Positions 9,880 through 27,434 of a stretch of DNA of 64,000 nt are shown here, in pieces; the stretch's first letter is position 1, and each line of letters opens with the position of its first letter. The notes under the pieces were generated by a model. The model saw only the letters and a list, made by a program, of their open reading frames with translations, did not search any database and was not told the DNA's origin. A program made the translations under genes and the position numbers. The stretch is taken from positions 82,371 to 146,370 of the forward strand of contig DAOUHQ010000013.1 in assembly GCA_034428515.1 (NCBI GenBank). Reading direction: 5' to 3'. The stretch is from Dehalococcoidia bacterium (GTDB lineage: Bacteria > Chloroflexota > Dehalococcoidia > UBA6926).

Positions 9880-9914
9880 GGGGAGTTCCTCCGTAGGGAC
9901 TCGATAACGGAAGA

Positions 9915-9975
9915 CGGGGCCGCTCCCGATGTGGGAGTCGGCCCCGTGTGGCGCCTGCTCTGGCGGGCAGGCGTC
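9915..9975. repeat. Intergenic double-hairpin repeat, copy 1 (ssb/radC)
   Basis: CGGGGCCGCTCCC...GGGAGTCGGCCCCG, then a CGCCTGC/GCAGGCG stem. Confidence 0.7.
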
Positions 9976-9989
9976 GTTCGCCGGTCCAG

Positions 9990-10388: not shown

Positions 10389-10440
10389 TTCTGACTCCTT
10401 CTCGCAATTGGATGCGATCTTTCGTGGCGCGGTATTGCGC

Positions 10441-10511
10441 CTCCTTTAAGGAAGAGCGGGGCCGCTCCCGTTCATGGGAACAGCCCCGTCGTGCGCCCTC
10501 CGGGGAGGGCG
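10441..10511. repeat. Intergenic double-hairpin repeat, copy 2 (nuclease/ssb)
   Basis: CTCCTTTAAG, then CGGGGCCGCTCCC...GGGAACAGCCCCG (10457-10488), then a CGCCCTCC/GGAGGGCG stem. Confidence 0.7.
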
Positions 10512-10512
10512 G

Positions 10513-11568: not shown

Positions 11569-11594
11569 CTCGTTCCTCCTGTAAGGAATGACTA

Positions 11595-11981
11595 TCAGGC
11601 GGCGCGTTCGGTTGCGCCGTGTTGCCCGTCGGACGCGAAGGGCCGCAGGACATGTGTGATGGCGTCGGCGATGCCATGCACCCAGCCGCTTGACCCGTCG
11701 GGCAACTGGTTCGGCCAGGGCTGCATCTCGTGGATGCCCGCGAGTTGATCGACGATCTCGGCGATTGGCGTCCCGCGTCTGAGGTGCAGCGAGACGAGGC
11801 GGCAGGCCGTCTCGGTCAGGCCGCGCTCGAACGTGCCCGCCTTCCCCAACTGCCCGAAGACCTCGAAGGGCTCGCCGTTCTCGTCCACCGAGACGGTTAG
11901 GTAGAGGTTGCCGTGCGCGGTGGCGATCACCGTCGTCGTGCCGCTCAGCGAGCGGGGCCGTGTTCTGCTCGTCTGTTCCAT
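11595..11981 (-). CDS. Stand-alone TSCPD domain (class II ribonucleotide reductase C-terminal/NrdJb-like)
   Basis: RPRSLSGTT...GNLYLTV...PFEVFGQLGKAG...RLVSLHLRRG...EIVDQLAGI. Start set at 11981 after AAAGGAGAG. Confidence 0.7.
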   Translation of the reverse strand: MEQTSRTRPRSLSGTTTVIATAHGNLYLTVSVDENGEPFEVFGQLGKAGTFERGLTETACRLVSLHLRRGTPIAEIVDQLAGIHEMQPWPNQLPDGSSGWVHGIADAITHVLRPFASDGQHGATERAA

Positions 11982-11992
11982 GTGTGCTGCCT

Positions 11993-12099
11993 CTCCTTTA
12001 AGAGGAGGCGGGGCCATCCCTCATTTCGGGAGGCGGCCCCGCTGTGCTGCTCGTGGACTGGCGACTAGGCCGCCGTCGGTGGCTCCGCCGGCCTAGTCT
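11993..12099. repeat. Intergenic double-hairpin repeat, copy 3 (rad52-like/TSCPD)
   Basis: CTCCTTTAAG, then CGGGGCCATCCC...GGGAGGCGGCCCCG (12009-12041), then a GACTAGGCC/GGCCTAGTC stem. Confidence 0.7.
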
Positions 12100-12832
12100 G
12101 TTCGTCGACCTTCCTCTCCGCCGCCGCAACCAGATCGGCCAATTCTTCGGTGCTGATCTGGGTGATGGCTCTGCCGGTGCGCGCCTTGACCGCGGCCTCC
12201 ACCTGCTCGGCGTTGAATCCTTGTGCTTTGCCGAGCTCGTACAGACGGATGCCCAACTTCTGCCTCTCGACCGCCGGCCTGGTCGACGGCTCCCTCGTCA
12301 CTTCGACGATGGCCGTCTGCGGATCGCCGTAGAGCGCGTTTCCGAAGCGCGCTCCGAAAGAGCGCAGCGCCCGCTTGAGGCCGTCGGTGACGGCTCCCTT
12401 GACGGCCGTCTCATGCCCGTCGGCGTTGTCCTCGACGACTGCGTGGAATCCAACGTCCATGCGGGAAGGCGCTCCAAGGACCGTGACGCGCACGGTGGCG
12501 GCGTAGGCGCGGATGCGGCGGATCTCGCCCGTCTTGGCGTCGATGCTGTCGATCTTCCGCAGTGTCACCTCGCCCATCACGTCGTAGCCCCAGCCGCCGT
12601 AGCCGAAGACGCGATTGGCTTCGTCAATGACCGTGTGCCCCTCGATGTACGAGAAGGTCTTGCCGCCGCGCCCCTTCCGCTGGGAGACAAGTGCGGGGTC
12701 GATGGGTGTGTCCAACTCCTGCCTGATGCCGGGCGCGAGACCGTCCCAGAGGATGGCGTCGTGCCCGTTCACCGGCGTGATGGCGGTAGGCTTCGTGCCG
12801 TTCTTGTGACCGTTCTCATTCGTGCTGACCAT
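12065..12832 (-). CDS. Rad52/Rad22-family (Sak-like) single-strand annealing protein
   Basis: RKGRGGKTFSYIEGHTVIDEANRVFGYGGW...AVKGAVTDGLKRALRSFGARFGNALY. Start set at MVSTNE (12832). Confidence 0.88.
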   Translation of the reverse strand: MVSTNENGHKNGTKPTAITPVNGHDAILWDGLAPGIRQELDTPIDPALVSQRKGRGGKTFSYIEGHTVIDEANRVFGYGGWGYDVMGEVTLRKIDSIDAKTGEIRRIRAYAATVRVTVLGAPSRMDVGFHAVVEDNADGHETAVKGAVTDGLKRALRSFGARFGNALYGDPQTAIVEVTREPSTRPAVERQKLGIRLYELGKAQGFNAEQVEAAVKARTGRAITQISTEELADLVAAAERKVDEQTRPAEPPTAA

Positions 12833-12885
12833 TGTTCTCTCCTTGCTTGTCCGATAGGTGAGCGGGCCGTCAGTCGACCCGTGTG

Positions 12886-12910
12886 CGGGGCGAAATAGCC
12901 CCGTCGTCGC
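12886..12910. repeat. Shortened copy 4 of the intergenic hairpin (primase/rad52-like)
   Basis: CGGGGC-GAAATA-GCCCCG-TCGTCGC; shares the AGCCCCGTCGT flank with copy 2. Confidence 0.5.
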
Positions 12911-12917
12911 TTGCTGG

Positions 12918-13970
12918 TTATCGTTCCCGTCTCTTCTCCCGCGCCGCATCGGCCAACTGGGCGATGAAGGCGGCGCGTCCGTCCGGCGCGGTGGCGAGTT
13001 CGCCGACGTCCATGAAGTCGCGAGGAAGCTGGACGACCGCCGAACGACGGCCCAAGAGGGCAGAGAGTCGTTCGGCGGCGGCGACGCCGGCATCGTCCCT
13101 GTCGAAGGCGACGAACACGTTGGCGAACCGCGAGACCGCCTGAGCGACACGTTCGAGGCCCTGTGTTCCAAGGGCGGCGCAGCCGGGTAGGCCCCACTGC
13201 GCCAGCGTCAGCCAGTCGAACATCCCCTCCGTGACGATGACCCATCGGGCATCGCTGGGGATGGAGCCCAGACCGAGCACCGGCTTGGAGCCGGTCAACG
13301 CCTGGAAGCGAGGCCGCGCCCCGTGCGTGATCGCTCGCCCCCCGAGCCATCGGACGAGGCCGCCGGCAACGTCGGGCACGACGAGCCTGCCTCCGAAGCG
13401 CTCTGCGCCACGTTCCGTGAACAAACCGGAGCGGGCTACCCGCTCGCCGTCGAAGCCGGCGGCGAGCAGCGCCTCGCGCAGTCGCGCTCCCGGCGCGTAG
13501 CCGAGACCGAGCTTGATTGCCGTGGCAATCGCGATTCCTCGACCTTCGAGGTAGGCGAGCGCGTCCTCGCTTCCAAGCAGCTGTGCTGCGTAGAAGCGCG
13601 CGGCCGCCGTGAGGACGGCGCGATCCCGCGCTGGAGGCGGCTCCACGCGCGCCCGCGACTCAAGCCGGGCGTTGCGTGGGTTAAGGACGGCAGTGCCGCC
13701 AAGCAGTTGCAACGCTCCGACGAGTGGCACCGACTCCGTCCGCTGGATGAAGTCCAGTACGTCGCCGCCCTCGCCGCAGCCGAAGCAGTACCACCGCTGC
13801 GAGTCGCCGTAGACAGTGAAACTGCCCTCTGCCTCGTCGTGGAACGGGCAGACGCCCTGACGGACGCGGCCCGTGCCGCGCAACTTCACGCCGGCGGACT
13901 CCACGATGGCGGCGAGGTCGTGACGCGCCTTGACCGCCGCGATGTCGATGCAGGGTGCTGCGACAGTCAT
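12918..13970 (-). CDS. dnaG: DnaG-type primase (CHC2 zinc finger + Toprim), element-encoded
   Basis: CPFH...WYCFGCG; Toprim VTEGMFD and AFDRD; lacks a C-terminal helicase-binding domain. Start set at 13970. Confidence 0.85.
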   Translation of the reverse strand: MTVAAPCIDIAAVKARHDLAAIVESAGVKLRGTGRVRQGVCPFHDEAEGSFTVYGDSQRWYCFGCGEGGDVLDFIQRTESVPLVGALQLLGGTAVLNPRNARLESRARVEPPPARDRAVLTAAARFYAAQLLGSEDALAYLEGRGIAIATAIKLGLGYAPGARLREALLAAGFDGERVARSGLFTERGAERFGGRLVVPDVAGGLVRWLGGRAITHGARPRFQALTGSKPVLGLGSIPSDARWVIVTEGMFDWLTLAQWGLPGCAALGTQGLERVAQAVSRFANVFVAFDRDDAGVAAAERLSALLGRRSAVVQLPRDFMDVGELATAPDGRAAFIAQLADAAREKRRER

Positions 13971-14422
13971 GCCGGCCTCCCCGTGAGGTCCCGCAAGCCG
14001 CGCAGGCTTCGACGGGAGACAACCTTCCCGGGCCGCCACTTCATGCCGAGCGCGGCAACAACTTCGAGATCGCCCCGGGCGAGTTGTCCCAGGGCGGCGG
14101 CACGACCGTCGCCCTGCGTGTAGACCAACACCCGCTGCCGCCCGAAGCAGCGGCGCACGAGGTCAAACCACTCGTTGTAGAGCCACCGCTTCTGCTCCAG
14201 CGCTGCGCCTCTGGCGTCGGCCGCCGAGAGCGTTGCCAGTGCCTCCTCGGGCTTGCCCTCGCGCCGTAGCCGACGTGCCTCGTGGATCGCCCTGGCGATG
14301 CTGAGAGACTCTCTCTTCTCCGAGTTCCGTCCGAAGATGGCCGCGATCAACCTGTCCACCAGCGGCTCCAACGCCGCCATCGGACTCTCGTCGATGAACT
14401 CAGTTGCCGTTGTCGTGGTCAT
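13967..14422 (-). CDS. Hypothetical protein
   Basis: Start MTTTT at 14422 after AAAGGG; TGA overlaps the primase ATG. Confidence 0.6.
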   Translation of the reverse strand: MTTTTATEFIDESPMAALEPLVDRLIAAIFGRNSEKRESLSIARAIHEARRLRREGKPEEALATLSAADARGAALEQKRWLYNEWFDLVRRCFGRQRVLVYTQGDGRAAALGQLARGDLEVVAALGMKWRPGKVVSRRSLRGLRDLTGRPA

Positions 14423-14696
14423 GTCCAACCCTTTCCTTCTCTCTCTTCGTGCGAGCTCGTTCTGCCGCCCGTCTCTGCGCCGCGCCCGCCGCCTTGCCGA
14501 CGGCCCAGCCCAGCGCGAGCCGCCTGAACTGGAACAGGACATAGGCCAGCCCGATCGCGTTCAGAACGCAGATCTCCGGGTCTCGTAAGAGGGCGAACGG
14601 CAGGATGAACAGCGCCGTCACTGCCGCGATCAGCAGCAGGCAGCGGTGCCGTACCAGCAGCCCCAACGCCCTCACGGGAATCAATGCAATGCGCAT
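14400..14696 (-). CDS. Small membrane protein, first gene of the leftward operon
   Basis: Two hydrophobic segments; AAGGAGG upstream of ATG 14696. Confidence 0.6.
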   Translation of the reverse strand: MRIALIPVRALGLLVRHRCLLLIAAVTALFILPFALLRDPEICVLNAIGLAYVLFQFRRLALGWAVGKAAGAAQRRAAERARTKREKERVGHDHDNGN

Positions 14697-15419
14697 GTGC
14701 GCCTCCTTGATGAGTAGCGGCCCACGCCGGCATCCGGGCGCAGGTCTAGTGCTGTCGAAAGGGGAAATGGGTATAGCTCGCCGGCGGTCGGATGCCAAAC
14801 CATCGCGCGAGTTGAAAGGGAATTCATGGGACGCAGCCGACGAGATTTCCCAAGAGGGAAACCGCCGTCACTGCCGCCCGAAATGGAAACGCCGGCCTCG
14901 GCTTCTGCCGCCGACCGGCAATGTATGAGAGACCCGCCTAGCTACGATTCACGTGGCTCTCGCGGGCAAGTCGAATCAGCCGAAGCGCAAGTGGCGTTCC
15001 GGCCGATGTGTGGAGCGGTCAGACTGCGAGTCGCAACCTGTCCGCAAGTTCCCGCTGTTCGAGGTGGCTCACGTGAGAGAAAACTCTCAGTAGTGATCCA
15101 CCTCTCGCCCCGGGGAGCGATGTTCCCGTGTTCGCGATGGGAAATGGGGAGAAACTCGACCCTTTCCTGTCACTCGCCGCAGGAAGCGATGGTCCCGATT
15201 TCGGATGTCCGGAGAGAAATCAATCGATCCCCGTGCATGTAACCCAGGTCGTTCGGGATAACCCGTCCAGGTTTCTAAGGTCAGAAACGCTGGAAAGCCA
15301 AACAACCCTGCTATTCTTATCGCCCACGCGGTCTCTGGCAAGGGGATTTTGCCGTTCCTGGGCGTCCAGAAGGGAATCGTTCCTAGACATTACCATGCCG
15401 TTTCCATTTAGTTAACAAA

Positions 15420-15450: not shown

Positions 15451-16332
15451 CTAGCCCCACCACACCCCGAACGTCGCCAGCCGTCTAACCCAACGGAGCA
15501 TCTTGCGACGAAAAATCCTCCGCCTGACGACGCGGAGATCGTCCAACCGCCATTTCGTGATGTGTCTGCGCCAGTGGTCGTCAATGGGTTTATCGTCCGG
15601 CGGCAGAGTCAGCTTGTACTCATTCAGCAGCACCAGCTCCACGATCAGCAGCCGCTCCTGCCTCTCCAACCACGTTAGCGTCCTACCTTTCAGTGAATGA
15701 TTCCGCTGCAGCATCCGCCACTCGCGTACGAGCGGCCACGCCTTTCGGTACACATATGAATCGTCATTGGCTGGCTCGACGGTCACGATGTCGTCGTAAT
15801 TGCGGCGCGGGAATGTTGGCCTAGTCTGCTTCTGGGGAGCCTCGATGGAAGTGATCGATGTAACACCCCGACCCCGCCGTGCAGACTTCGTTCTCTTGGC
15901 GCCCGTGGGTCTCGCCTGTTGAGCCGACGAATCCCCGCTAATCTTCCGTTCCAGGACGCGGATGGCCCTGTCCTGTTCGGCTCCGTGCGTTTCGATCGTT
16001 GTGCGTAGCTGTTTCGAACCGGCCACAATTTCCTTGACGACGCCCTCCACCTTGGCAAGCCGGTCATCCAACACGGTGAGGCGTTCCTCATGCAGCTGAA
16101 AGATCGGGTTGTCTTCTGAGAGCAGTCTCAGTTCCAACGCGTGTGTCATCCGTCTCGACAACCGCCGGGTCTCTTGGGCTGCGGCGAGGGTCTTGTAATT
16201 CACGCCCAGCTTGCTTGCCGCCTGCATCGGTCCCTCTTCGCGCACGATTCGATCCATCAGGATGAGCAACGCTTCACGCCCTCGCGCCGTCTCTCCCTGC
16301 ACGTCATCCAGCATCAGCAGATCGTCTTCCAA
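15451..16332 (-). CDS. Hypothetical protein with N-terminal HTH-like and coiled-coil segments
   Basis: PMQAASKLGVNYKTL is HTH-like; heptad-rich middle; AAGGAGG upstream of the start. Confidence 0.6.
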   Translation of the reverse strand: MEDDLLMLDDVQGETARGREALLILMDRIVREEGPMQAASKLGVNYKTLAAAQETRRLSRRMTHALELRLLSEDNPIFQLHEERLTVLDDRLAKVEGVVKEIVAGSKQLRTTIETHGAEQDRAIRVLERKISGDSSAQQARPTGAKRTKSARRGRGVTSITSIEAPQKQTRPTFPRRNYDDIVTVEPANDDSYVYRKAWPLVREWRMLQRNHSLKGRTLTWLERQERLLIVELVLLNEYKLTLPPDDKPIDDHWRRHITKWRLDDLRVVRRRIFRRKMLRWVRRLATFGVWWG

Positions 16333-16735: not shown

Positions 16736-17362
16736 GTGGAGCATCGACCTACAGTCATCACGGCAGCAGTTCGAAGCCGCCCCATAAAGCGGGCGGCGCT
16801 GGTGGCCATGATCATGACCGTTCTCTTGGCGGTCGCCACAGCGACCGTTATCACAAGTCCGGCGCTGGCTCAGACGCCTCCCGACGCGACCGACCTGATG
16901 AGCGATCCCGACGACGTTGTCGAGCGGGACGACGACGGCAGCTTCACAGCCCGGCCCGTCTTCAACCGGCAGATTCCGCTGTTGCATTACGGCGTCCGCG
17001 ACGCCGATACGGGTACGTGGGTGAGTTCCGTCTACCAGGTGCGCGGCGGTGAGCGCCGCCACCGCGACGGCTGGGAGTATACGTTCGACTATCCCGTTCT
17101 GGATGAGCAGCCCGAATTGGATCCGCAAAAGCCGTACATCCTGGGAATCATCACGCGGCAGGCTGTCGGTGCGGATGTGTACACATTCCACGCGGTCATT
17201 CCCGTTCATCAGTCGGATTCGCTCTGGGACCGCGTGTTGGGAGCGCTGAGTCCGGACCGGTGGGCACGGGCAGTGGCTCAGTGGATTATCGAGGGCGTTC
17301 ACGGCGCGCTCTGCGGCGTCGTCGAGAGGGCGACGAGCGTGGACGCGGCGGAGTGCCGGTAG
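16736..17362 (+). CDS. Exported/membrane-anchored hypothetical protein, first gene of the tra operon
   Basis: AAGGAGG + GTG; signal peptide ending PALA-Q. Confidence 0.7.
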   Translation: MEHRPTVITAAVRSRPIKRAALVAMIMTVLLAVATATVITSPALAQTPPDATDLMSDPDDVVERDDDGSFTARPVFNRQIPLLHYGVRDADTGTWVSSVYQVRGGERRHRDGWEYTFDYPVLDEQPELDPQKPYILGIITRQAVGADVYTFHAVIPVHQSDSLWDRVLGALSPDRWARAVAQWIIEGVHGALCGVVERATSVDAAECR

Positions 17363-17375
17363 GTGTTGACGCAGA

Positions 17376-18341
17376 ATGAGCGACATCTTGACCGGCACTC
17401 CGCCGGAACTTACCTACCTCCACCCTCTTGTCATGCAGGCATGGCAAGTCGTCTGGGGCGTCACATCTGGAATGCTGGTCGCGATCCTCGGCTGGATGGG
17501 CCTGACACTGATCGTGCAGGAGCACCTTGGCGGCGGACGCGCCGGATGGCGAGAGATGGTGCCGCGCCTTGTGTTAGGACTCGTCGGTGCGGCGAGCTCG
17601 CTCTGGTGGTGCGCATTGGTCATCGACGTGGCGGACGCCGTCTCCGGATTCATCGCGTCGTCTCTCGGCGTGACCGCTGGAGACTTCCTCCGCTCAACGC
17701 TGGACACACTGCTACAAGCGGTCAATGCAGGCAGCGTCGGCATGGGGCTGCTGATGGCCCTTTTGTACCTGATCTACGCCTTCTTCGTCCTGTACGTCCT
17801 CATCCAGATGATCCTGCGCATCGCGCTCATCGACATCCTGCTGACCTTGGCTCCTATCGCGCTGGGACTGTGGATCCTGCCGCATACGGCGGGCTGGGGG
17901 CGGCAGTGGCTCAGGACGTTCATGCTGACCGTCTTTCAGCAGTCTGTCCAGCTGATTGCCCTGGCCCTAGGATTCGGGTTCCTCAACGAGTTCGCGGCCA
18001 TCGCGGAATTCGAAGCTGTGCAGGACCTGATCTGGAAGCTGCTTCTGTCGATGGCCTTCATCTACATGGCGGGACGTGTGCCGTCCCTCCTCGGAAACGG
18101 CGGGACGTTCGACGCGTGGCTCCGAACACTGTACTTCGGCATGTCGCTGCCGAGTTCGATCATGCGGTCCAGCCGCGCCATCGGGTTGATCGCCGGCAGC
18201 ACCGCAGGCGGCCCTGCCGGCATTGCTGCAGGAGCAGTCGCTGCAGGCGGAGGGATCGCCGCGCTGAGCGGAAGCATCCGCTCGGCTGCGAGCGGAGTCG
18301 CGGCAGCTCAGGGCGGCACTTTCAGGAGCGCCGATGAGTAG
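17376..18341 (+). CDS. TrbL/VirB6-like polytopic conjugation membrane protein
   Basis: Multiple TM helices, LRIALIDILLTLAPIALGLWILPHT...W pattern, Gly/Ala-rich tail; operon context. Confidence 0.72.
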   Translation: MSDILTGTPPELTYLHPLVMQAWQVVWGVTSGMLVAILGWMGLTLIVQEHLGGGRAGWREMVPRLVLGLVGAASSLWWCALVIDVADAVSGFIASSLGVTAGDFLRSTLDTLLQAVNAGSVGMGLLMALLYLIYAFFVLYVLIQMILRIALIDILLTLAPIALGLWILPHTAGWGRQWLRTFMLTVFQQSVQLIALALGFGFLNEFAAIAEFEAVQDLIWKLLLSMAFIYMAGRVPSLLGNGGTFDAWLRTLYFGMSLPSSIMRSSRAIGLIAGSTAGGPAGIAAGAVAAGGGIAALSGSIRSAASGVAAAQGGTFRSADE

Positions 18342-18465
18342 CAGACGGACCACCGAACGAACAAAACCGACGCGGCGAATCCGTGGACGCGGCGACGTTC
18401 ATACGTGACAGGTTTCGTCTTAGGCCATGGGTGCAGCAGAGGAAGAAAGGAATAGGAGGACAGCG

Positions 18466-18756
18466 ATGGAACAGTTGACGCAGACAATTTCTAACCTGGT
18501 GGGCATCATGCTCGGCTTGGTCGGCGTGGTGGGTGTGGCGTACTTCATCTTCGGCGCGTATCAGTACCTGACTGCAAGCGGCGCACCGAGCCAGATGGAG
18601 CGAGGCAAGAGCGCCATGATGACGGCCATCGCGGGCATCGTTCTCGCCATGGTGGCCTTCGGTGTCGTCGATGTCGTGATGAACGCCGTAGTGAACCCGG
18701 CAGTGGACATCACCGTCCCCGATCCCGGCACGCCCACGCCGACCCCGACGTCATAG
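18466..18756 (+). CDS. TrbC/VirB2-like pilin
   Basis: Two TM helices joined by GAYQYLTASGAPSQMERGKSAM; AGGAGG before ATG 18466. Confidence 0.75.
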   Translation: MEQLTQTISNLVGIMLGLVGVVGVAYFIFGAYQYLTASGAPSQMERGKSAMMTAIAGIVLAMVAFGVVDVVMNAVVNPAVDITVPDPGTPTPTPTS

Positions 18757-18779
18757 GCCGGTTGTGAGAGGAGGAAGCC

Positions 18780-20480
18780 ATGAGAGAACACGAGGTACCG
18801 ACACACGTGCAGGCCGAGGACAAGGTGCTGCTGTGGCTCACCTTTCCGCAGGTGGTGACGCTAATCGCGGTGGCCGCTGCCGCCTACGGGACGTTCAGCT
18901 ACGCGCCCGGACCCACCGCGCTCCGCATCGGTGTCGCCGCAGTCATCGGCTTGGTCGGCGCCGCTGCGGCGGTGGGTCACATTAATGGACGGCGTCTGCC
19001 TATAGTGATCGCCGACTTGCTGAAGTACTGGCTGGGGCCTCGCCGTTTCGCCGGGCAGGTGACGGAACTGATGCGGCTCGCGCCCGTGCTGGTCATCGAG
19101 GCCGACCCAGGGTTGTTTGAGCGAATGCAGGAGAAGGGACGACGGCGATTCCGTCGACTTTGCCGTCGTCGTGACCGACGAAATGGCGGCAAACCCGACC
19201 GCAACTCGGACGAACACGGGAAGCGCAGGCCCAAGGGAGTGAAGCCACCCAAGCGGGACGGTGCGGCAGGGAGAACCACCTTCAGCCAACGGAAGTGGGT
19301 AGTCGGAGCAGCAATGGTCGCTCTCTGCCTCGTTGCCGCCTTGCCTCAGATGGCGTTCGCGCAAGGCGACCGAGACGAGCGTGGTTCGCGCATCTCTGAG
19401 GTGGGGATCGAGTTGCCGCCGCCTGTGCTTGGAAGGCGTGTCTTCGTCGAAAGCATCACAGTCTCCGACGATCGGGCGCGGGTGTCGGTCCGCGCTGCGG
19501 CGGATGTCAGCCTCAGTACAAGGGCGTACGGCGGGGATGACGACGAAACACTGCGATTCGTGGACAGGGTATCGCTACAGCAGGGCGAAGCGGAGACGTT
19601 CGACGTACCGCTGAACGGTGAAAGGCCATCAGTCACTCTCTCATGGGTCGATTCGCTCGGACAGGCGGGTGGGTTCAGTCTGTCAGGCGAACAGATCCCG
19701 CATCCCCTCCCGTCGATGGACGGAGGGCTCTGCGATGCGCAGCTCACATCCCTATCCGTGTCACGCGCCGGTGTCAATGGGACCGTCTCGACGGACTGCA
19801 AGCGGCGAGTGATGGAGACTATGGAATTGCGGACCGTCACCGGCCCCGACCCGGTCGAGATCCTGACCGTAAGGGAGGCGGAGATCACGGGCATTACCGG
19901 ACGGCTGAGCGCCCGTCTCGGCAGTGAAGAGACAGTCGTGCCGCTCGTTACTGACGGAGCGACGTCCTTCAGCGTCGCCGTCGACCCGTCGGCGGGCGTC
20001 CACGACATTTCGCTCAGTGTGGACATCCGCGGTGCGGTGCGCATTCCTGTACCGCCGTTGGTCACGATGCGCACCGTTCCGGAACGGACGGTGAGGCAAT
20101 CACACGTCGTGTCCGTCCTGCGCCCCGGGATCAGCAGAAATGTCTCCGAAACCGTAACCATTCTCTGCGAGGACGGGACTGAGGAACGCCACAGGATTTC
20201 TGTTCGTCTGTCCATCCCAGCCAGGACAATCGAAAAGGCCACAAGAGTCCCAGTCACCTATCAGTCCTACGTCACGGCGGAGATTACGGAACGAGACCCC
20301 GCCATGCGCTGGCGTGACGAGAGAATCCAGATGGCATCGACCGCGTGGGCAGACGCTCCCTACACGGTGTTGGCGTTGCCCGAGCCGGAACCGACGCCAG
20401 AAGTGGCGGAGCAGATTCCTGCGAGCAGTGGCGTCGTCGAAGATCTCTTCGAGAGGATCGGTTGGGAGTGGCCGTGGTGA
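18780..20480 (+). CDS. PrgI (VirB3-like) family protein fused to a large exported beta-rich domain
   Basis: N-terminus HEVPTHVQAEDKVLLWLTFPQ is PrgI-like; internal signal-like segment ending MAFA-Q. Confidence 0.68.
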   Translation: MREHEVPTHVQAEDKVLLWLTFPQVVTLIAVAAAAYGTFSYAPGPTALRIGVAAVIGLVGAAAAVGHINGRRLPIVIADLLKYWLGPRRFAGQVTELMRLAPVLVIEADPGLFERMQEKGRRRFRRLCRRRDRRNGGKPDRNSDEHGKRRPKGVKPPKRDGAAGRTTFSQRKWVVGAAMVALCLVAALPQMAFAQGDRDERGSRISEVGIELPPPVLGRRVFVESITVSDDRARVSVRAAADVSLSTRAYGGDDDETLRFVDRVSLQQGEAETFDVPLNGERPSVTLSWVDSLGQAGGFSLSGEQIPHPLPSMDGGLCDAQLTSLSVSRAGVNGTVSTDCKRRVMETMELRTVTGPDPVEILTVREAEITGITGRLSARLGSEETVVPLVTDGATSFSVAVDPSAGVHDISLSVDIRGAVRIPVPPLVTMRTVPERTVRQSHVVSVLRPGISRNVSETVTILCEDGTEERHRISVRLSIPARTIEKATRVPVTYQSYVTAEITERDPAMRWRDERIQMASTAWADAPYTVLALPEPEPTPEVAEQIPASSGVVEDLFERIGWEWPW

Positions 20481-20788
20481 GACGCCGCGCAGTATCCGCG
20501 GTGGTCGTTGCCGCGGGGATTCTGTCTCTGGGGGCGGTCACACCGGAGCAGCGAGCCATGCTCCACACATTCGACCAGGTGTTGACGGGCATGGTCTACG
20601 CGGCGGCGGGGCTGGCCGTGTTCTCAGTCGTCTGGGCGGGTTTCGTGCTCATGGCGGAGGGCGCGGAAGGCAGGGAAACGGGTCGGGCGCGAAATGCGGT
20701 CCTGCTCGCACTTTCCGGGCTAGTTCTCGTCCTGTCGGCGAAGGTTCTTGCCATTGTCCTCATCAACGGCATAGTCCCGATTCCATGA
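20477..20788 (+). CDS. Second VirB2/pilin-like membrane protein
   Basis: GTG overlaps the upstream TGA; TM-loop(AEGAEGRETGRARNAV)-TM architecture like the first pilin. Confidence 0.6.
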   Translation: MRRRAVSAVVVAAGILSLGAVTPEQRAMLHTFDQVLTGMVYAAAGLAVFSVVWAGFVLMAEGAEGRETGRARNAVLLALSGLVLVLSAKVLAIVLINGIVPIP

Positions 20789-20805
20789 CAGAGGGAGAGT
20801 CCACC

Positions 20806-23025
20806 ATGAAAGACATGCAGAACGGGGCCGAGAGGCCCGACCCAACCACAGACGACGGCCAGCTCACGCGGTTCTTCATGATCTCGCACGTCGAGGACGA
20901 TGGTCCGGTACGTGCGGACGGCGTCAAGCTCGGAATCCTAGAATCGCTTGGCCTCGAACTCGACGAGGCGAAGCTCGGGGCGTTCGCGGGGGCACTCAAC
21001 GCGATAGACTTCCCGGTGCAGCTTCTCATCAGGCAACATGCACCGGAACTTAGCCGTTTACGCGCGCAGTTGACGACCGATCAGCCGGAGAACTTGCCTC
21101 CACGGACGGCCTCTGCCGCCGATTCCCTGCGTGGATTGCTGACCGACCTGGAAAGCCGCGAGGGCGTTGTCGACCGTCGATTCTACGCCGTCTGCGCGTT
21201 CGAGCGGATTGACGATCTGCGTGGCCTCATGGTGCGCGCAGGACTGGCGGTCAATCACATGACTGGCCGCCAGTTGCGGATGCTGATTCTCTCGTCTGCA
21301 GCGGGCAATTCCCCGCGAGAAGTCGGAAATGAGGAAGGCCTTGAGATTGAGATCCGGCGGCGTGAGATTCGTGTGGGGGATACGCTTGCGCGGGCTCTGC
21401 ACCTTGGCAAGTGGCCCCGCGCGTTGATACCCGGTTTTCTTCAGGCTCTGATGGCGTCCGGTACACGGATGGACGTGTCAATCCATCTCGGCCCCATACC
21501 CGCCGATCAGGCATCCCGCACGCTTGAATGGCAAAAGGTGCGGTTCGAGTCGGCCCAATCATTGTCACTGCGGCGGGGCAGGACCATGTCGCCGGAGGCG
21601 GAGATTGCGCTGGAGGACGTGAGGCGTCTGCGGGATGAAGTGCAGCGGGGAAGGGAGCGACTCTTTCATTCCTCGCTGTCCATCACCCTGTACGCCCGCG
21701 ACGAGACAGAACTCAAGGAGACGACGCAGGGTGTCCGGGCCCATTTCGCGGCCACCCTTGGCAAGATCGATACCTTGCCGTTCCGGCAGCGTGAGGGCCT
21801 CTTGTCGTCACTGCCCATAGGGCTGAATTCTATCGGGACGTGGCGGACACTGGACACGTCCTCGCTCGCGCGGCTCTTCCCCTTCTCCCCGCCCGACCTC
21901 GACACACGCAGCGGCACGCTCTACGGCATCGACCTGCGCTCGTCGTCTCCCATTGTCTATGACCCGTTCGACGGCACACACCTGAACGCCAATACAGCCG
22001 TGCTCGCTCGATCCGGCAGCGGCAAGTCTTTTGCCACGAAACTCGGCGTGCTGCGCGGCATCTGCCGCGGGGTAACCGCGTACGTCATCGATCCCGAGGG
22101 CGAGTATGCAGATATGGCGCGGGCGGCGGGAGGCCGCGTTCTCTCACCGGGAGTGCCGGGCCAAGGCATGAATCCGTTCGTCATCGACCGCTCCGACAGC
22201 GAGGAATTGCTGCTTCGCATCGGCAGCTTGAGGCGTCTGATCGAGGTCATGGTCGGTGAACCGCTCGGCGCTGAGAGGAGAGCAGTTCTGGACCATGCGC
22301 TTGCCGCCTACTACATGGAGCCCAGAGAGAGAACGGGGTTTCGGGACTTCTACGAGCACCTGAAAGAGCACGGCGACGGAGTCTTGGATAAACTGCTCAG
22401 GCCGTTCGCGACGGGCAGCCTCAGGCATCTCCTTACGGATGAGGGTGACGATCTGTTGATCAACGAGGCTCCGGTCACCGTGTTCGATCTCCGGCTGCTT
22501 GAGCCCGAACTGCGCCCTGCGGCCGCAATGGTCTGCACGGAAACGGTCTGGACTGCGGCCGCACAGAATCCGAAACCTCGAGTGCTCGTCGTTGATGAGG
22601 TCTGGTCGATAATGCAGCATCCTGAAGGAGCGGCATTCATGGTCAGCATGGCCAAGCGCGCCCGAAAGCACCGGCTTGGTCTGCAGTTCATTACTCAGGA
22701 CGTGCAGGATCTGTTGTCCGAGGACACGTCGCGTGCTATCACCGGCCATTCAGGTCGTGCGTTGCTCCAGAACGCCGCTTTCAAGCTGCTGCTTCAACAG
22801 GACGCGGCGGCCATCGGCACAGTCGGTGACGCATTCGATCTCCCCGATGATCTCCAACGTTGGCTAATCTCTTGTCCGCGTGGAGACGGCCTGTTGCTGG
22901 CGCGCGGCGGAAGGTTCCCGATTCGCATCGAGGCCACGAGGGAGGAGGCCGAGGTCATTGAATGGAGGCCCGGCCGCCATCGACGACAGACCGTTACATC
23001 AAACAGCGCGGAGGTGACGCAATGA
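20806..23025 (+). CDS. virB4: VirB4-like conjugation ATPase
   Basis: Walker A ARSGSGKS, VIDPEGEY, Walker B LVVDEVW, KRARKH, ITQDVQD. Start set at 20806 (GAGGGAG upstream). Confidence 0.9.
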   Translation: MKDMQNGAERPDPTTDDGQLTRFFMISHVEDDGPVRADGVKLGILESLGLELDEAKLGAFAGALNAIDFPVQLLIRQHAPELSRLRAQLTTDQPENLPPRTASAADSLRGLLTDLESREGVVDRRFYAVCAFERIDDLRGLMVRAGLAVNHMTGRQLRMLILSSAAGNSPREVGNEEGLEIEIRRREIRVGDTLARALHLGKWPRALIPGFLQALMASGTRMDVSIHLGPIPADQASRTLEWQKVRFESAQSLSLRRGRTMSPEAEIALEDVRRLRDEVQRGRERLFHSSLSITLYARDETELKETTQGVRAHFAATLGKIDTLPFRQREGLLSSLPIGLNSIGTWRTLDTSSLARLFPFSPPDLDTRSGTLYGIDLRSSSPIVYDPFDGTHLNANTAVLARSGSGKSFATKLGVLRGICRGVTAYVIDPEGEYADMARAAGGRVLSPGVPGQGMNPFVIDRSDSEELLLRIGSLRRLIEVMVGEPLGAERRAVLDHALAAYYMEPRERTGFRDFYEHLKEHGDGVLDKLLRPFATGSLRHLLTDEGDDLLINEAPVTVFDLRLLEPELRPAAAMVCTETVWTAAAQNPKPRVLVVDEVWSIMQHPEGAAFMVSMAKRARKHRLGLQFITQDVQDLLSEDTSRAITGHSGRALLQNAAFKLLLQQDAAAIGTVGDAFDLPDDLQRWLISCPRGDGLLLARGGRFPIRIEATREEAEVIEWRPGRHRRQTVTSNSAEVTQ

Positions 23026-25619
23026 GAAACGAATCCCTCATCAAAGGGCTGAAACGCACCAGTGGCGAACTTTCCCATGAACTCCTTGCCGTCATGCCGC
23101 CACGGAGCGGCGAACGAACCCTGCTCGCAGTGGAGAACCTGCTCCAGTCAATCGCCCAGCCTGAGCCGTTCTCGCTTGAACTCGTCGGCGATCGGGACGG
23201 CGTGCGACTGCTTGTGCGCTGCCTCGATTCGCAAATGGTGGCGAGTCAGATTGCTGCCCACTATCCACAGGCCCGTGTCGCTTCGCTGGGAGCGGCCGAC
23301 GATCCCATGCTCGTCGGCGAAGGTCACGATGCATGGACGATGCATCTTCGTTCTAGCGGCCCGGAACCGCTTTCTCTTCGCCAGGCGAAGGACGAGGTTC
23401 TCCTCGAAGAGGGCTCCGATCCAATGCTCGCCGTAGTCGGTGCTCTCTCATCGCTGCGATCCGGCGAACGAATTATCTCCCGCCTTCTTCTCCGGTCGAT
23501 TGGCCAGGAGTGGTCGACAACTTACGAATCGGAACTTGACACCCAGAAGACGGCCACTCGCAGCCCGGAGCGGGAATCGCAGGTCAGTCGCGGAGAAATC
23601 ATGCGACTGATGCTGCTCGGCGGCGGAGCGCTCGTTGGACTGAAGGTGTGGCAGCTCTGGCAGGCTGGAGACGAGTTGAAGGCAATCGGACTCGCGGTCG
23701 GCGCGGTGTTCGCCACGCTGACCGCTGCGATCCTGTGGGCGCGGTTCATAGGAAGTGGCTCCCGCATCCACGATGCGCCGCCGGTCAGGGAAAAACTCTC
23801 CCGCATGGCTTTCGACGGGGAACTCCAGGTCACCGCAATCGTAAGCGAGCGGGCGGGCAGGCGCCGCGGCGAGGAGCTCCTTCATCATGTCGCGGTGGCC
23901 TACCACCACTACGATAACCCGGCCGGGGCGCACTTCGTCGCCGGCAAGATACGGCCTTTGTCCGGGACCGTCGAACTCGGCCCTTCGAGCCCTGGGTTCT
24001 TTCGAAGGCGCAGCGTCCTCGGCGTCAGTGAGGTCGCCAGCCTCTGGCATCCACCCAACACGCGCGACGAGACGCCGCCAATCGAGCGATCCGGGTCGCG
24101 CGTCCTCTCGCCGTTATTTCAGGAGATGAGCAATGGCGCACACGCGGGCAACGCGACGACGGATTCTCGCGAACAGATCCGTTTCCCCGACGACCTGCTT
24201 CGTCGCCATCACCTTTATGTCGCCCGCACGCGCATGGGCAAGTCTACGCTCATGCAGCACATCGTGGCACACAAAATGGCTCAGAAGGCCGAGGGCCGCG
24301 ATGATGACGCCATCGTGGTCATTGATCCTCACGCCGACCTTGTGGCCTCTCTACTGGAGCACGTGCCTGATGAACTGGCGGACAGCGTTCGGCTCATCGA
24401 CCTTGCCGATCCCAATGGCGCGCCAGGAATCAACCTGCTGGACACCCGCATCTTCACAGACCGCGACCGTACGGCGGACTCCGTTGTTCGCATCGCTCGC
24501 GGGCTGTGGGATCAGTGGGGGCCCCGCATGCAGTCGATTCTGGAGCAGGTCGTCAAGACGCTCCACGAAGCCAATGAACAGAGAGAAGCGGATGAGCAAT
24601 ACACAATCCTCGACGGTCTCCGGCTCCTCGCCTCTAACAACGAATCCTTCAGGCACGGCGTGCTGAGGGACGTGGACGACGTCCACCTTCTGGAGTGGTG
24701 GGCACGCGATTTCACGAGCTGGCACCGCCAGTACCAGTCCGAAGCTCTGGCTCCCGTCCAGACTCGTCTTTCCTATTACGCCACGTCGAAGAAGGCTCGG
24801 GCCATCCTCGGCCAGAGCCGGTCAACCGTCGACATTCGGCAGACTATCCGGGATGGCGGCATCCTCCTAGTCTCGACGGCGCAGGGTGTTGCTGGACGCG
24901 ATGTGTCCGCCCTCGTGGGCTCATCGCTACTCAACCTCGTCGATGCAGTGATCCGCGAACAGGGCGAGAGACCAATCGAGGAGCGCCGCCCGGTGCTGGT
25001 CGTGGTTGACGAGATGCAGTCGATGCCCGGGGTGGACTACGATTCCATGTTGTCGGAGCTGGGGAAGTTCGGAGCGAGCTTCGTCCTCGCCACTCAGAGC
25101 CTCGCCAAGCTCGACGATCTTTCGCGTTCGATGCGCTACAGCGTGCTGGCTAACGTCGGTTGTCTGGCCGTCTTCCAGGTGGCCGCGTCCGATGCCCGCC
25201 AACTCGTCGACGAATTGGGAACCGATCGCGTCACCCAAGACGACATCACCTCGCTGCCCGTCCATCACTGCTACGTCCGCGCAACCGTCGGTACGCGGCG
25301 AATGCCCACGTTCTCGATGGAGGTCCGCAAGCCGCAACCGGGAAACACGGGCACGGCGCGGCGCATAAGGCAGGCCACGGAGGAGTACACGACAGGGCAC
25401 GCGACGCTGGTGGCTCGCGACGCCAGCCTCGACCGTCTGGTCGCGGACTATCGGAAGAACGAGGAGGAAAAGCAGCCGGCATCCGGTGGTGAGCATTCTC
25501 CGGCTTCGGTAGTGTCTTCAACTGAGACGGCTAGACCACATCGAAGGAGGCGAGACGAGAGCGCAGGCAGTTCCAGCGATTCGAGCAAGCGGCAAGCGCG
25601 GGAGGGCAGGGCGAGATGA
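23022..25619 (+). CDS. virD4: VirD4/TraG-like type IV coupling protein
   Basis: Two TM helices; RHHLYVARTRMGKST (Walker A variant), VIDPHADL, VVVDEMQ, ELGKFG, LATQSL. ATG overlaps the virB4 stop. Confidence 0.88.
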   Translation: MRNESLIKGLKRTSGELSHELLAVMPPRSGERTLLAVENLLQSIAQPEPFSLELVGDRDGVRLLVRCLDSQMVASQIAAHYPQARVASLGAADDPMLVGEGHDAWTMHLRSSGPEPLSLRQAKDEVLLEEGSDPMLAVVGALSSLRSGERIISRLLLRSIGQEWSTTYESELDTQKTATRSPERESQVSRGEIMRLMLLGGGALVGLKVWQLWQAGDELKAIGLAVGAVFATLTAAILWARFIGSGSRIHDAPPVREKLSRMAFDGELQVTAIVSERAGRRRGEELLHHVAVAYHHYDNPAGAHFVAGKIRPLSGTVELGPSSPGFFRRRSVLGVSEVASLWHPPNTRDETPPIERSGSRVLSPLFQEMSNGAHAGNATTDSREQIRFPDDLLRRHHLYVARTRMGKSTLMQHIVAHKMAQKAEGRDDDAIVVIDPHADLVASLLEHVPDELADSVRLIDLADPNGAPGINLLDTRIFTDRDRTADSVVRIARGLWDQWGPRMQSILEQVVKTLHEANEQREADEQYTILDGLRLLASNNESFRHGVLRDVDDVHLLEWWARDFTSWHRQYQSEALAPVQTRLSYYATSKKARAILGQSRSTVDIRQTIRDGGILLVSTAQGVAGRDVSALVGSSLLNLVDAVIREQGERPIEERRPVLVVVDEMQSMPGVDYDSMLSELGKFGASFVLATQSLAKLDDLSRSMRYSVLANVGCLAVFQVAASDARQLVDELGTDRVTQDDITSLPVHHCYVRATVGTRRMPTFSMEVRKPQPGNTGTARRIRQATEEYTTGHATLVARDASLDRLVADYRKNEEEKQPASGGEHSPASVVSSTETARPHRRRRDESAGSSSDSSKRQAREGRAR

Positions 25620-27178
25620 AAGAAGGCACGTCGTCGGATCGGATTATTGCTCGACTCGCTGAGATGCCCTTCATCGACCGCCTCGAACTGTCATCACTCA
25701 CTGGCCTGCCGGAGAGCACCGTCTCACAGGCAGCGAGTCGGCTCATGGAAGCCGGTCTCATCACAGCCGTCCCCCACAGGCCGGAGCACGGGTCTCACAC
25801 CAAGCGTTTCTCACTCACAGCCGAGGGCATTCATCAACTGGCGAAGAGTGAAGAAAAATCGGTGGACGACATTATTAGATCACATCCTATATCGGCCCAG
25901 TGGCGGCACCTCCTTCTTCCGCGTCTCGACGCCCTTGCCGTCGTTTACTCGGTGATTGAGACGATATCCGGAGTTGCGACCCCAATCTCGGTCCGCTTGT
26001 ACCGGTCGCATCCATTGGACGCGGTGGTGACCCTGCCGGACGGCCGAACGATCGGCATCAGCCGCCAAGGCCGCACGACGGACAAGTCATCGTTCGGCAA
26101 GCGGTTGCAGCGGCTCTTTCAAGGGCCATTGCCGGGGTCCCTACTGTTCATTGTCCAAGACGAGATACGCTTGCGTCACACCCGCCGGACGCTCTCTCCG
26201 ATGCGAGCGCCGGTGTTTATAGGACTTGAGAAGGACGCTGTAACCGCATTCGTAAACGACACCGTCTGGCAACGACCGGGGAACGGGGCGCGATTCGACA
26301 TGGATTCCATCGTCGAAAAATCTGCCAATGCAGGGGGAATGCCCGCGGAACGGATCGCCTCACGAGCCTCGCTGCCTGTTGGCGTGCCCACCGGCACTGC
26401 CCTGTCAGAGACTCCTCCCCACCTCCTGCCGTCCGCCCTACAGCCCGCGGACAAACGCGTTTTGGATATGCTGGCCGACTGGCCGGGGATATCTCCTCAG
26501 AATCTGCGGCTGCTGCTCGGCCTCAGCCCGGCCCGAATCTCTCAAGTGCTTTCACGCCTGAACGCAGCGGAGCTGGTGCTTGAAATCGACCTGAAAGGGC
26601 GTCGGCTCGTTCCGACGGATCGTGCGCTTGCCCTCATCGCGCGGCGTGATCGCACGTCCGTCGGTGTTGCCCAACGTAGGTGGAGCATGGGGTCCATCGC
26701 ACTAGGAACGCCTGTCGACTGGCGAGACGTGCCGGGACGACGCCTGCGCCAGCTGCTTCGCCACATTGAACACACGGACGCCGTCCACACCTATCTCGCG
26801 TCCACGGTTTCCGCGGCTTCGAAGAGTGGATGGGAGGTCGTTCAACTGGACCCGCCGCACCGCGCTTCTCGCTACTTCAGGTACGAAAACGGTCAACGCT
26901 CCGTCCATCCTGATGCATTCTTCATGCTCCGCCGTGGCGACGAGACCAAAGCATACTTCCTGGAATGGGAGCGTCGCGCGGTCCGACCGAGCACGATGCG
27001 GGAGCGCCTGGCTCCCTATCTCCGCTACTACTCGACAAAGAGACCCCTGGACGACCACGGGGTCGCTCCTACGGTGCTTATCGTGGTCGAAGACAAGGTC
27101 ATAGTGCCCCACTTCGGACGGATTGCGGGTGAGGAGATGGTTCGCTCGGGAGTTCGGATTCCCCTGAGCGTCCGGTGA
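25616..27178 (+). CDS. Replication-relaxation (Replic_Relax) family protein, candidate relaxase
   Basis: wHTH followed by HTDAVH, VHPDAFF, YFLEWER; directly downstream of the coupling protein. Confidence 0.72.
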   Translation: MKEGTSSDRIIARLAEMPFIDRLELSSLTGLPESTVSQAASRLMEAGLITAVPHRPEHGSHTKRFSLTAEGIHQLAKSEEKSVDDIIRSHPISAQWRHLLLPRLDALAVVYSVIETISGVATPISVRLYRSHPLDAVVTLPDGRTIGISRQGRTTDKSSFGKRLQRLFQGPLPGSLLFIVQDEIRLRHTRRTLSPMRAPVFIGLEKDAVTAFVNDTVWQRPGNGARFDMDSIVEKSANAGGMPAERIASRASLPVGVPTGTALSETPPHLLPSALQPADKRVLDMLADWPGISPQNLRLLLGLSPARISQVLSRLNAAELVLEIDLKGRRLVPTDRALALIARRDRTSVGVAQRRWSMGSIALGTPVDWRDVPGRRLRQLLRHIEHTDAVHTYLASTVSAASKSGWEVVQLDPPHRASRYFRYENGQRSVHPDAFFMLRRGDETKAYFLEWERRAVRPSTMRERLAPYLRYYSTKRPLDDHGVAPTVLIVVEDKVIVPHFGRIAGEEMVRSGVRIPLSVR

Positions 27179-27434
27179 CCTCGTGCTCCGCCGGGCTCAG
27201 CAGCACGTCCACGAGGCCCAGTGCGTGTGCGACTGTGAGGAGACGCATGAAATTCCTGGCGTCGGGTTTCACGCCCCTGCGCCACTCCCGGAGCCGATAA
27301 GGAGTTACGCCCAACTGCCGGGCCAGCCCGCCCCATGAGAGCCCCGATCTTTCCTTGAACCGTTTGATTCGCTGAGGAAAGTCTTCGGGAAACTCGAAGC
27401 GGTGCGAATAGCGTCTCTGTTCACGCGCCGCCAT
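27099..27434 (-). CDS. XRE-family HTH protein 4
   Basis: DFPQRIKRFKERSGLSWGGLARQLGVTPYRLREWRRGVKP. Confidence 0.75.
   Translation of the reverse strand: MAAREQRRYSHRFEFPEDFPQRIKRFKERSGLSWGGLARQLGVTPYRLREWRRGVKPDARNFMRLLTVAHALGLVDVLLSPAEHEVTGRSGESELPSEPSPHPQSVRSGAL

Follow-up and report, generated by a model that had tools for sequence, protein, structure and literature searches.

Among the conjugation systems described from monoderm bacteria, those of the mating-pair-formation (MPF) classes FATA and FA are reported to be without VirB2-like pilins (PMC4027160, PMC12102498), and FATA systems are known to pair with relaxases of the MOB_C class (PMC5357655). In pCF10, whose VirB4 protein PrgJ is the FATA prototype, and in Cutibacterium pTZC1 a hydrolase gene stands directly after that for VirB4, and in Geobacillus an M23 peptidase gene stands one gene further. 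The type IV secretion systems (T4SSs) of Patescibacteria are derived from FATA and have arrays of VirB2-like pilin genes (PF18895/PF04956) beside virB4 (PMC12102498). Here we analysed an operon at 16736-27178 of a 64,000-nt stretch (called the window throughout) of contig DAOUHQ010000013.1 from a Dehalococcoidia bacterium, which has two VirB2-like pilin genes and no recognisable hydrolase gene. On balance we think it probable that this operon is the complete transfer module, MPF and DNA processing together, of a large and often multi-copy family of integrative and conjugative elements (ICEs) specific to Dehalococcoidia, and that it has no hydrolase since its hosts are most likely murein-less.

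The general plan is that of the prg/pcf system of pCF10, which is likewise monoderm and has a PrgI/VirB3-like gene ahead of that for VirB4, a VirB6-like protein and a VirD4-type coupling protein, with no VirB7, VirB9 or VirB10. The differences are that the Dehalococcoidia VirB4 is just 23-24% identical to PrgJ, that PrgI is fused to Ig-like ectodomains, that the candidate relaxase belongs to MOB_C where the FATA reference has MOB_P, and that a PrgK-type hydrolase and recognisable counterparts of PrgL and PrgD are missing.

Open reading frames (ORFs) and their translations were obtained by a GC3-based screen of the window and scanned against Pfam and NCBIfam, and related loci were collected by a one-genome-per-species scan that gave 570 loci, the best 80 of which (L001-L080) were used for the synteny counts. 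The ORF screen and domain searches showed eight intact consecutive genes on the plus strand, here g1 to g8, which span exactly 16736-27178. The gene for the VirB4 ATPase, g6 (20785-23025, +; 746 aa), has both of its Walker motifs intact (A, GSGKS; B, VVDE), and is followed by g7 (23022-25619, +; 865 aa), which encodes a VirD4-type coupling protein (PF10412 TrwB_AAD_bind at 28.6 bits versus a cut-off of 20.5, plus TraG-D_C). The N-terminal extension of this coupling protein is long, a membrane segment lies around residue 230, and the P-loop and both Walker motifs are intact; it is 27% identical to the coupling protein (T4CP) of Embleya and 42-45% identical to those of two further relatives, L093 and L094. 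The last gene, g8 (25616-27178, +; 520 aa), encodes a candidate relaxase with two winged-helix domains and a C-terminal Replic_Relax domain (PF13814), which scores 24.1 bits versus a cut-off of 25.3 in the window copy and is matched by 13 of 13 orthologues (best E 1e-12). PF13814 corresponds to the MOB_C class of CONJscan (PMC5357655) and its fold is PD-(D/E)XK (PMC3424549), by which g8 is a candidate relaxase of the MOB_C class. When the g8 profile was aligned directly to that of the Embleya Replic_Relax protein the match was weak (hhalign probability 15%, with the winged helix alone aligned), and it was the Pfam scans of the orthologues that settled the assignment.

Upstream of these, g2 (17376-18341, +; 321 aa) encodes a VirB6/TrbL-like polytopic membrane protein (PF04610 at 27 bits versus a cut-off of 25.9) with five to seven hydrophobic segments, a median identity of 78% across 77 loci and 29% identity to the TrbL_4 protein of Embleya, and is presumed to be the translocation channel. 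Two pilin-like genes had been proposed from the first look at the sequence, and both were borne out. The first, g3 (18427-18756, +; 109 aa), is VirB2-like, with a T4SS_pilin (PF18895) match of 47 bits, two transmembrane (TM) helices, a Pro/Thr-rich tail and 54 invariant columns among 13 orthologues; against the NCBIfam pilin-like family Mbov_0395 it scores 36.9 bits (cut-off 40). The second, g5 (20477-20788, +; 103 aa), is VirB2/TrbC-like, with a signal peptide and two TM helices, and owes its assignment to its orthologues: the T4SS_pilin match is 20-21 bits in the window copy but is found in 12 of 12 orthologues, and 10 of the 12 also match TrbC/VirB2. The relatedness of g5 to g3 is weak (hhalign E 1.3e-4, probability 54%).

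Between the pilin genes, g4 (18780-20480, +; 566 aa) encodes a PrgI/VirB3-like hairpin followed by three Ig-like ectodomains, and has 852 homologues. The PrgI match covers residues 1-85 (PF12666 at 23.6 bits versus a cut-off of 27), PF12666 is also found on two orthologues, and the Embleya PrgI matches the g4 N-terminus. TM segments lie at residues 16-34, 47-65 and 174-192, with a basic disordered linker between the hairpin and the third of them. Structures of g1 and g4 were modelled with AlphaFold2 (AF2) from alignments of 38-45 sequences and compared with the PDB by Foldseek; residues 215-535 of g4 were all-beta, at a model confidence (pLDDT) of about 90, and formed three tandem beta-sandwich domains, with matches to transglutaminase C-terminal barrels, alpha2-macroglobulin MG domains and FnIII tandems and none to a hydrolase. 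At the C-terminus of g4 the residues G-W-E-W-P-W are invariant or nearly so in 38 homologues, although the 30 residues before them vary and are disordered; this hexapeptide may be a docking motif. The operon begins with g1 (16736-17362, +; 208 aa), an exported protein with a signal peptidase I (SPase-I) signal peptide ending ALA/Q and no Pfam match, as is true of all of its 359 homologues. It is specific to the Dehalococcoidia family and has 30 invariant residues, including a Glu, a His and two Cys (C193/C207), and an invariant A45-Q46 cleavage motif. Its AF2 model (pLDDT 75) is a beta-sandwich followed by C-terminal helices of low confidence, and Foldseek returned only generic Ig/fn3/CBM sandwiches (best E 6e-3).

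At the junctions g4/g5, g5/g6, g6/g7 and g7/g8 there are 4-nt GTGA or ATGA overlaps preceded by GGAGG-like sites; the GTG start of g5 at 20477, for instance, overlaps the g4 stop, and its end at 20788 overlaps the start codon of VirB4. As all four junctions overlap in this way, the last five genes are translationally coupled. By tblastn with the proteins of the window as queries, g1 to g8 kept their order and spacing in 76-80 of 80 loci (g5 in 79), the exceptions being mostly loci truncated by contig ends, and the operon was without any inserted extra gene. The ratio dN/dS, computed against the three closest loci, was 0.04-0.24 for all eight genes (VirB4 0.04-0.05, g1 0.15-0.17), and by this measure all eight are under purifying selection. 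Because order and spacing are kept in this way and dN/dS is so low, the operon is not a product of chance, and the intact ORFs together with the same dN/dS values ruled out that it is a remnant or a set of pseudogenes.

VirB4 has more than 1,700 homologues in a set of 5.8 billion proteins, with the top 120 at 75-91% identity. All 80 loci came from metagenome-assembled genomes (MAGs) labelled Dehalococcoidia, SAR202 cluster or Chloroflexota, labels which confirm the Dehalococcoidia as hosts of the operon, as had been supposed; many are on complete chromosomes of 1.9-4.4 Mb, 14 genomes contribute two to four loci each, and every complete locus has a relaxase-class gene. On OZ244722.1 (4303396-4348998) two copies, L024 and L056, are placed back to back, oppositely oriented and with about 1.4 kb between them, and CBDEFX010000001.1 brings together loci L037, L043, L045 and L046 in one genome. 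Inside a further related element (L016, 305-1678) an ORF like a group II intron-type reverse transcriptase/maturase was identified by eye.

The first-pass annotation had described the operon as having no VirB1, CHAP, NlpC or M23 gene and no outer-membrane core complex, and this description was upheld by Pfam and, for the hydrolase, also by phmmer and by the folds of g1 and g4. At E<=0.01, the larger ORFs between 4.8 and 44.6 kb of the window gave no Pfam match to SLT, CHAP, NlpC/P60, M23, amidase, glucosaminidase or lysozyme domains, so that none of the scanned ORFs of the element has a hydrolase domain, and VirB7, VirB9 and VirB10 domains were found in none of the scanned ORFs of the operon or the putative element at the same threshold. 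Nine T4SS hydrolases (the Embleya SLT+NlpC/P60 protein, PrgK of pCF10, Orf14 of Tn916, TrwN of R388, Orf169 of F, TcpG and a second hydrolase of pCW3, the Geobacillus M23 peptidase and the Cutibacterium LT/C40 protein) were also used as phmmer queries. The targets, every stop-to-stop ORF of 50 aa or more from the window and the 80 loci (19,246 in all), gave zero matches, with nothing below E ~0.1; the positive controls worked, as the reference hydrolases recovered each other even between phyla (E 1e-8 to 1e-20). A cryptic hydrolase in g1 or g4 was ruled out by the AF2 models and Foldseek, which gave beta-sandwiches with Ig/fn3/CBM/MG-type matches. A VirB8-like (NTF2-fold) bitopic subunit was not recognisable either, as the sole exported or bitopic candidates, g1 and the C-terminus of g4, model as beta-sandwiches, although a divergent analogue is possible.

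That a wall- or S-layer-remodelling enzyme is present in a guise these searches do not recognise, as a new fold (g1, with E63, H189 and its Cys pair, or the 2421-aa protein described below) or as a chromosomal gene elsewhere, seems to us improbable. The invariant Glu, His and Cys residues of g1 and the low confidence at which its C-terminal helices were modelled would be in keeping with such an enzyme, as would the large parts of the 2421-aa protein that have no Pfam match and the screening of relatives over about 10 kb around VirB4. However, where the g1 model is confident it shows just a beta-sandwich, for which Foldseek returned nothing enzyme-like, the 2421-aa protein is missing from 80 of 80 loci, the ten accessory gene families that recur in the related loci contain no hydrolase domain by Pfam, and the phmmer searches returned nothing despite controls that worked.

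The class of the system was judged from VirB4 and its neighbours. Among NCBIfam models, VirB4 scored highest against CD1110 (NF045971; 235.1 bits, cut-off 325), the family to which PrgJ of pCF10 is annotated, followed by Mbov_0397 (158.5 bits, below its cut-off of 590), TraC-F (129) and VirB4_CagE (86), and a sequence search of the PDB gave a single match, 4ag5, the VirB4 of Thermoanaerobacter. The best match among 72,556 plasmids was at 34.6% identity, to Embleya and Streptomyces replicons, followed by Candidatus Chlorohelix (30%), Firmicutes (25-28%) and then archaeal plasmids. The MPF labels given by MOB-suite in PLSDB were tried and were of no use for monoderm classes, pCF10 itself carrying the label MPF_T. 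In a bootstrapped neighbour-joining (NJ) tree of 15 VirB4 sequences, the Dehalococcoidia VirB4 was sister to those of Embleya and Streptomyces at a bootstrap of 99, the next to join were Chlorohelix (66) and after it Geobacillus (71), and PrgJ and Cutibacterium came next with a bootstrap of only 44; Orf16 of Tn916 and TcpF of pCW3 (both FA), TraC of F and TrwK of R388 were placed apart. The MPF_FATA neighbours PrgI, TrbL near virB4 and a VirD4-type coupling protein are present, and a hydrolase of the PrgK/TrsG/CD419 type and a VirB8-like subunit of the PrgL, PrgD or TraM type were not found. On these sequence comparisons the system appears to be a deep, divergent branch on the MPF_FATA side, below every curated family threshold, with a candidate MOB_C relaxase. 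The suggestion that this is a poorly classified MPF type is thus right in so far as all curated cut-offs are missed and identity to plasmid VirB4 proteins does not exceed 35%, but the system is not unclassifiable: the tree groups it on the FATA side, with a bootstrap of 44 at the node shared with PrgJ, and its gene content differs from that of classical FATA systems.

The actinomycete sisters show what the Dehalococcoidia operon is without. In Embleya sp. NBC_00896 (NZ_CP108778) the two systems have a common core order of VirB6-like gene, PrgI, small gene, VirB4, T4CP and Replic_Relax, but a bifunctional SLT+NlpC/P60 hydrolase gene comes directly after the relaxase gene in Embleya, where the Dehalococcoidia operon has none. 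An unannotated locus of Streptomyces sp. BHT-5-2 (NZ_CP081497) gave VirB6-, VirB4- and T4CP-like matches only, then a homologue of the SLT/NlpC-P60 protein just after the T4CP. The VirB4 proteins of both are 35-36% identical to that of the Dehalococcoidia; both hosts are walled, and their systems have no annotated pilin-like genes, a PrgI without the Ig-like fusion and no g1 homologue. The generalisation from which the first-pass annotation started, that monoderm T4SSs normally encode a hydrolase, agrees, among the relatives examined from walled hosts, with Embleya, Streptomyces, Cutibacterium, Geobacillus and pCF10 but not with the Chlorohelix plasmid.

Peptidoglycan is ancestral in Dehalococcoidia and was lost in Dehalococcoidales and in a marine radiation that includes SAR202 (PMC10284905), and cultivated SAR202 as well as sponge-associated SAR202 genomes have no peptidoglycan synthesis genes (PMC10444878, PMC6306507). 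One of the related loci (L028) is in a SAR202 bin, and housekeeping genes of the window host share at least 90% identity with genes in Chloroflexota MAGs from sponges, whose genomes measure about 1.9-2.1 Mb. The absence of a murein hydrolase and of a recognisable VirB8-like subunit is most likely explained by hosts that are monoderms without a murein sacculus (SAR202-type and related Dehalococcoidia), in which there is no wall to breach. The premise that Dehalococcoidia lack peptidoglycan needs narrowing, as it holds for Dehalococcoidales and the marine radiation but not for the class as a whole.

Several observations weigh against this explanation or against the operon as we read it. Basal Dehalococcoidia orders retain peptidoglycan (PMC10284905), and the PrgI, g5 and Replic_Relax domains score just under the Pfam cut-offs in the window copies. 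The closer VirB4 relatives L093-L095, at 41-48% identity, have no hydrolase within about 10 kb of VirB4 on each side, the range inspected for L092-L095, by Pfam or phmmer, and on the Chlorohelix plasmid none was found in the four large neighbours scanned or in six-frame ORFs. Most of the phylum Patescibacteria, moreover, does make peptidoglycan. Patescibacteria T4SSs with VirB2-like pilins are mostly without VirB1 near virB4, and VirB8 is mostly missing from them too (PMC12102498).

These cases would fit an account in which the entire FATA-like branch with VirB2 pilins has inherited the ability to do without a hydrolase, irrespective of the wall, with a thin pilus or conduit, or housekeeping autolysins, being sufficient; if so, the missing gene is uninformative on wall-less adaptation. 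The relatives that were collected by searching 1.84 billion cluster representatives, which have full-length VirB4 proteins at 35-62% identity on contigs with a GC of 0.53-0.63, speak for it. L093 and L094 have VirB6, a separate PrgI of 165 aa, two or three T4SS_pilin genes, VirB4, a T4CP and a g8-like protein at 29-30% identity, with no hydrolase, and the stretches inspected of L095, L092 (about 10 kb) and the Chlorohelix plasmid are hydrolase-free as well. L093-L095 have no g1 within 10 kb, and L093 and L094 have no Ig-like fusion either. L092 also has six tandem genes of 126-129 aa (20008-22446, on a high-GC contig) beside a VirB4 of 39-41% identity, which are reminiscent of the VirB2 pilin arrays in Patescibacteria. 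On the other side, the hosts of L092-L095 may themselves be murein-less, only about 10 kb was inspected to each side of their VirB4 genes, and the actinomycete sisters, which have no pilin genes in the annotated stretch, do carry a hydrolase; because the pilin-less sisters are the hydrolase carriers, loss of the hydrolase and presence of pilins are inseparable in the present sampling. We regard this branch-wide independence as a serious but minority possibility, and of the two accounts the one with no murein to cut is favoured, as clearly the likelier though not overwhelmingly so. The proposal that the system is adapted to wall-less Chloroflexota accordingly stands as one of two live explanations: the hydrolase of the actinomycete sisters and its absence from the operon agree with it, but the lack is not specific to proven wall-less hosts, being shared by L093-L095, Chlorohelix and Patescibacteria.

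From the gene set we infer roles for g1, g3, g4 and g5, an active transfer and a link to the wall-less envelope, as follows. The MOB_C-type Replic_Relax protein g8 would bind the origin of transfer (oriT) via its winged helices and nick it, and the VirD4-type coupling protein g7 would hand the DNA to a translocon of VirB4, the PrgI/VirB3-like hairpin of g4 and the channel g2, sitting in the cytoplasmic membrane. The VirB2-like proteins g3 and g5 would build a short pilus or conduit, and the Ig-like ectodomains of g4 and the beta-sandwich of g1 would span, or dock to, a proteinaceous surface layer. A large serine recombinase would integrate and excise the element.

The genes around the operon are consistent with such an element. 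The recombinase gene (42975..44630, +; Resolvase, Recombinase and Zn_ribbon_recom domains) runs at its 3' end 58 nt into a tRNA-Val gene (44573-44649, minus strand), with a tRNA-Met gene at 44761-44835, and 41 loci have a homologous recombinase 3-5 kb past their relaxase gene. The recombinase of the window is probably the integrase, placed at the right end of the ICE. A search of the window for element ends in the form of a repeated tRNA-Val region gave nothing beyond chance, and serine recombinases leave only a 2-bp crossover. To the left of the operon, a replication, recombination and anti-restriction module on the minus strand (4846..14798; Pfam) encodes a SNF2-type helicase, a DUF6094 methyltransferase, RadC, SSB, a PD-(D/E)XK nuclease, TSCPD, a Rad52-like protein, a DnaG-like primase and hypothetical proteins, of which the primase, the Rad52-like gene and the gene h191 are syntenic in 37-53 loci. 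The relaxase, coupling protein and MPF genes (g2-g8) and an integrase are thus present on one element, with loci within Mb-scale chromosomes, and the operon is probably the transfer module of an ICE of roughly 40 kb.

The same gene content bears on whether the cluster might be a domesticated T4SS, serving DNA uptake or release or contact-dependent delivery of effectors, as has been proposed for Patescibacteria, and not conjugation at all. Its parts do resemble the Patescibacteria T4SS, with pilins, VirB3, VirB6, VirB4 and a coupling ATPase and no VirB1 or VirB8 (PMC12102498), but a relaxase-class gene and a VirD4-type coupling protein are always in the operon, unlike in Patescibacteria, and the linked serine recombinase, primase, SSB and anti-restriction-type methylase and helicase, at multiple genomic sites, are typical of ICEs. 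We consider domestication very unlikely.

The operon as a transfer module is not quite confined to the eight genes that the first-pass annotation counted, since a ninth, divergent gene (15451..16332, minus strand) has homologues at the equivalent position in 73 of the 80 loci and small genes downstream are also conserved. The divergent gene encodes a cytoplasmic protein of 293 aa, HTH-like and rich in coiled coil, with no TM or hydrophobic segment and no Pfam or NCBIfam match, and is a putative regulator of the transfer operon. Downstream, small HTH or Cro-C1-type regulator genes on the minus strand (27099..28295; HTH_3 and HTH_31 matches) flank the operon in 31-74 loci. A scan for sigma-70 promoters and terminators upstream of g1 gave no sites. 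At 16605-16668, about 70-130 nt upstream of g1, lies an imperfect inverted repeat of 31 nt (2-nt loop, 74% complementary), which may be an operator or part of oriT, and the motif GCGAACACTTGTCCTCATG and an AGGAGGCAC-N-GTG start are common to the window and its closest loci.

Further genes are probably passengers. A 2421-aa fn3-containing surface protein (29629-36894, minus strand), with fn3-type Pfam matches only, in the middle of the protein, is missing from all the 80 related loci; it is probably cargo and may be a surface adhesin. An imuB-like (IMS), dnaE2 (Pol III alpha-type) and SRAP/YedK cassette (37451-42768, +; Pfam) is an error-prone polymerase "mutasome" situated between the transfer genes and the recombinase gene; it apparently rides on the ICE as cargo, with ImuB-like genes recurring in five related loci. 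At 655-3774 (minus strand), in a stretch of lower GC (0.50-0.52 versus about 0.61-0.68 alongside), a 1039-aa protein with SIR2-like, novel STAND NTPase 5, TPR and cold-shock domains looks like an anti-phage defence protein encoded at the left flank of the element.

Our literature searches found no paper on a conjugative element or T4SS in Dehalococcoidia, in which this ICE family is apparently undescribed and very common. The class, SAR202 among its members, is abundant in the oceans, in sponges and in the subsurface. Since the one-genome-per-species scan gave 570 loci and single genomes hold as many as four copies, the family is probably a major route of gene flow in these bacteria; the window element carries both the giant surface protein and the cassette for error-prone polymerases. 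The family would also be a natural experiment on whether the requirement for a dedicated wall hydrolase and a VirB8-like subunit is confined to cells with a murein sacculus, and its compact eight-gene set could serve as a genetic tool for organisms presently without one.

Hydrolase-free systems on the FATA side are already known from wall-less or murein-free hosts, namely mycoplasmas and archaea, and an archaeal Thermococcus plasmid showed no hydrolase. The ICEs of Mycoplasma are alike in having a FATA-side T4SS with a pilin-like small membrane protein and VirB4 in a wall-less host, but the Dehalococcoidia g3 (36.9) and VirB4 (158.5) score below the cut-offs of 40 and 590 for the Mycoplasma families Mbov_0395 and Mbov_0397. 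Mycoplasma ICEs use a DDE transposase, and the Dehalococcoidia element has a serine recombinase. Class 8 of the streptococcal integrative and mobilizable elements (IMEs) has the same trio of VirD4, MOB_C/PF13814 relaxase and serine integrase, but is mobilizable only and has no MPF genes (PMC5357655), whereas the Dehalococcoidia element has the full MPF set. What is new here is that a hydrolase-free system is combined with VirB2-like pilins in what is probably a bona fide conjugative element, in a phylum next to Patescibacteria. Such pilins had been thought absent from monoderm FATA and FA systems, and PMC12102498 leaves open where those of Patescibacteria came from.

Compared by description, the Patescibacteria T4SS and the Dehalococcoidia operon both have VirB2-like pilins, VirB3, VirB6, VirB4 and a coupling ATPase, with no VirB1 or VirB8. 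All identified hosts of the operon are Chloroflexota and none is a member of Patescibacteria. We tentatively suggest, as a possibility that goes beyond what we hold to be probable, that the operon stands for a separate, as yet unnamed subclass among monoderm conjugation systems, with VirB2-like pilins, VirB3, VirB6, VirB4, VirD4 and MOB_C and no VirB1 or VirB8, which is widespread in Dehalococcoidia and related uncultured lineages and is the still-conjugative counterpart of the relaxase-less T4SS of Patescibacteria. If so, VirB2-like pilins would already have been present in a FATA-like conjugative ancestor and not borrowed from diderm systems, and the murein hydrolase would have disappeared in step with the sacculus within the Dehalococcoidia radiation. 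The Patescibacteria T4SS is generally relaxase-less and is thought to have been co-opted for episymbiosis (PMC12102498), whereas the Dehalococcoidia operon is always accompanied by a relaxase and a recombinase.

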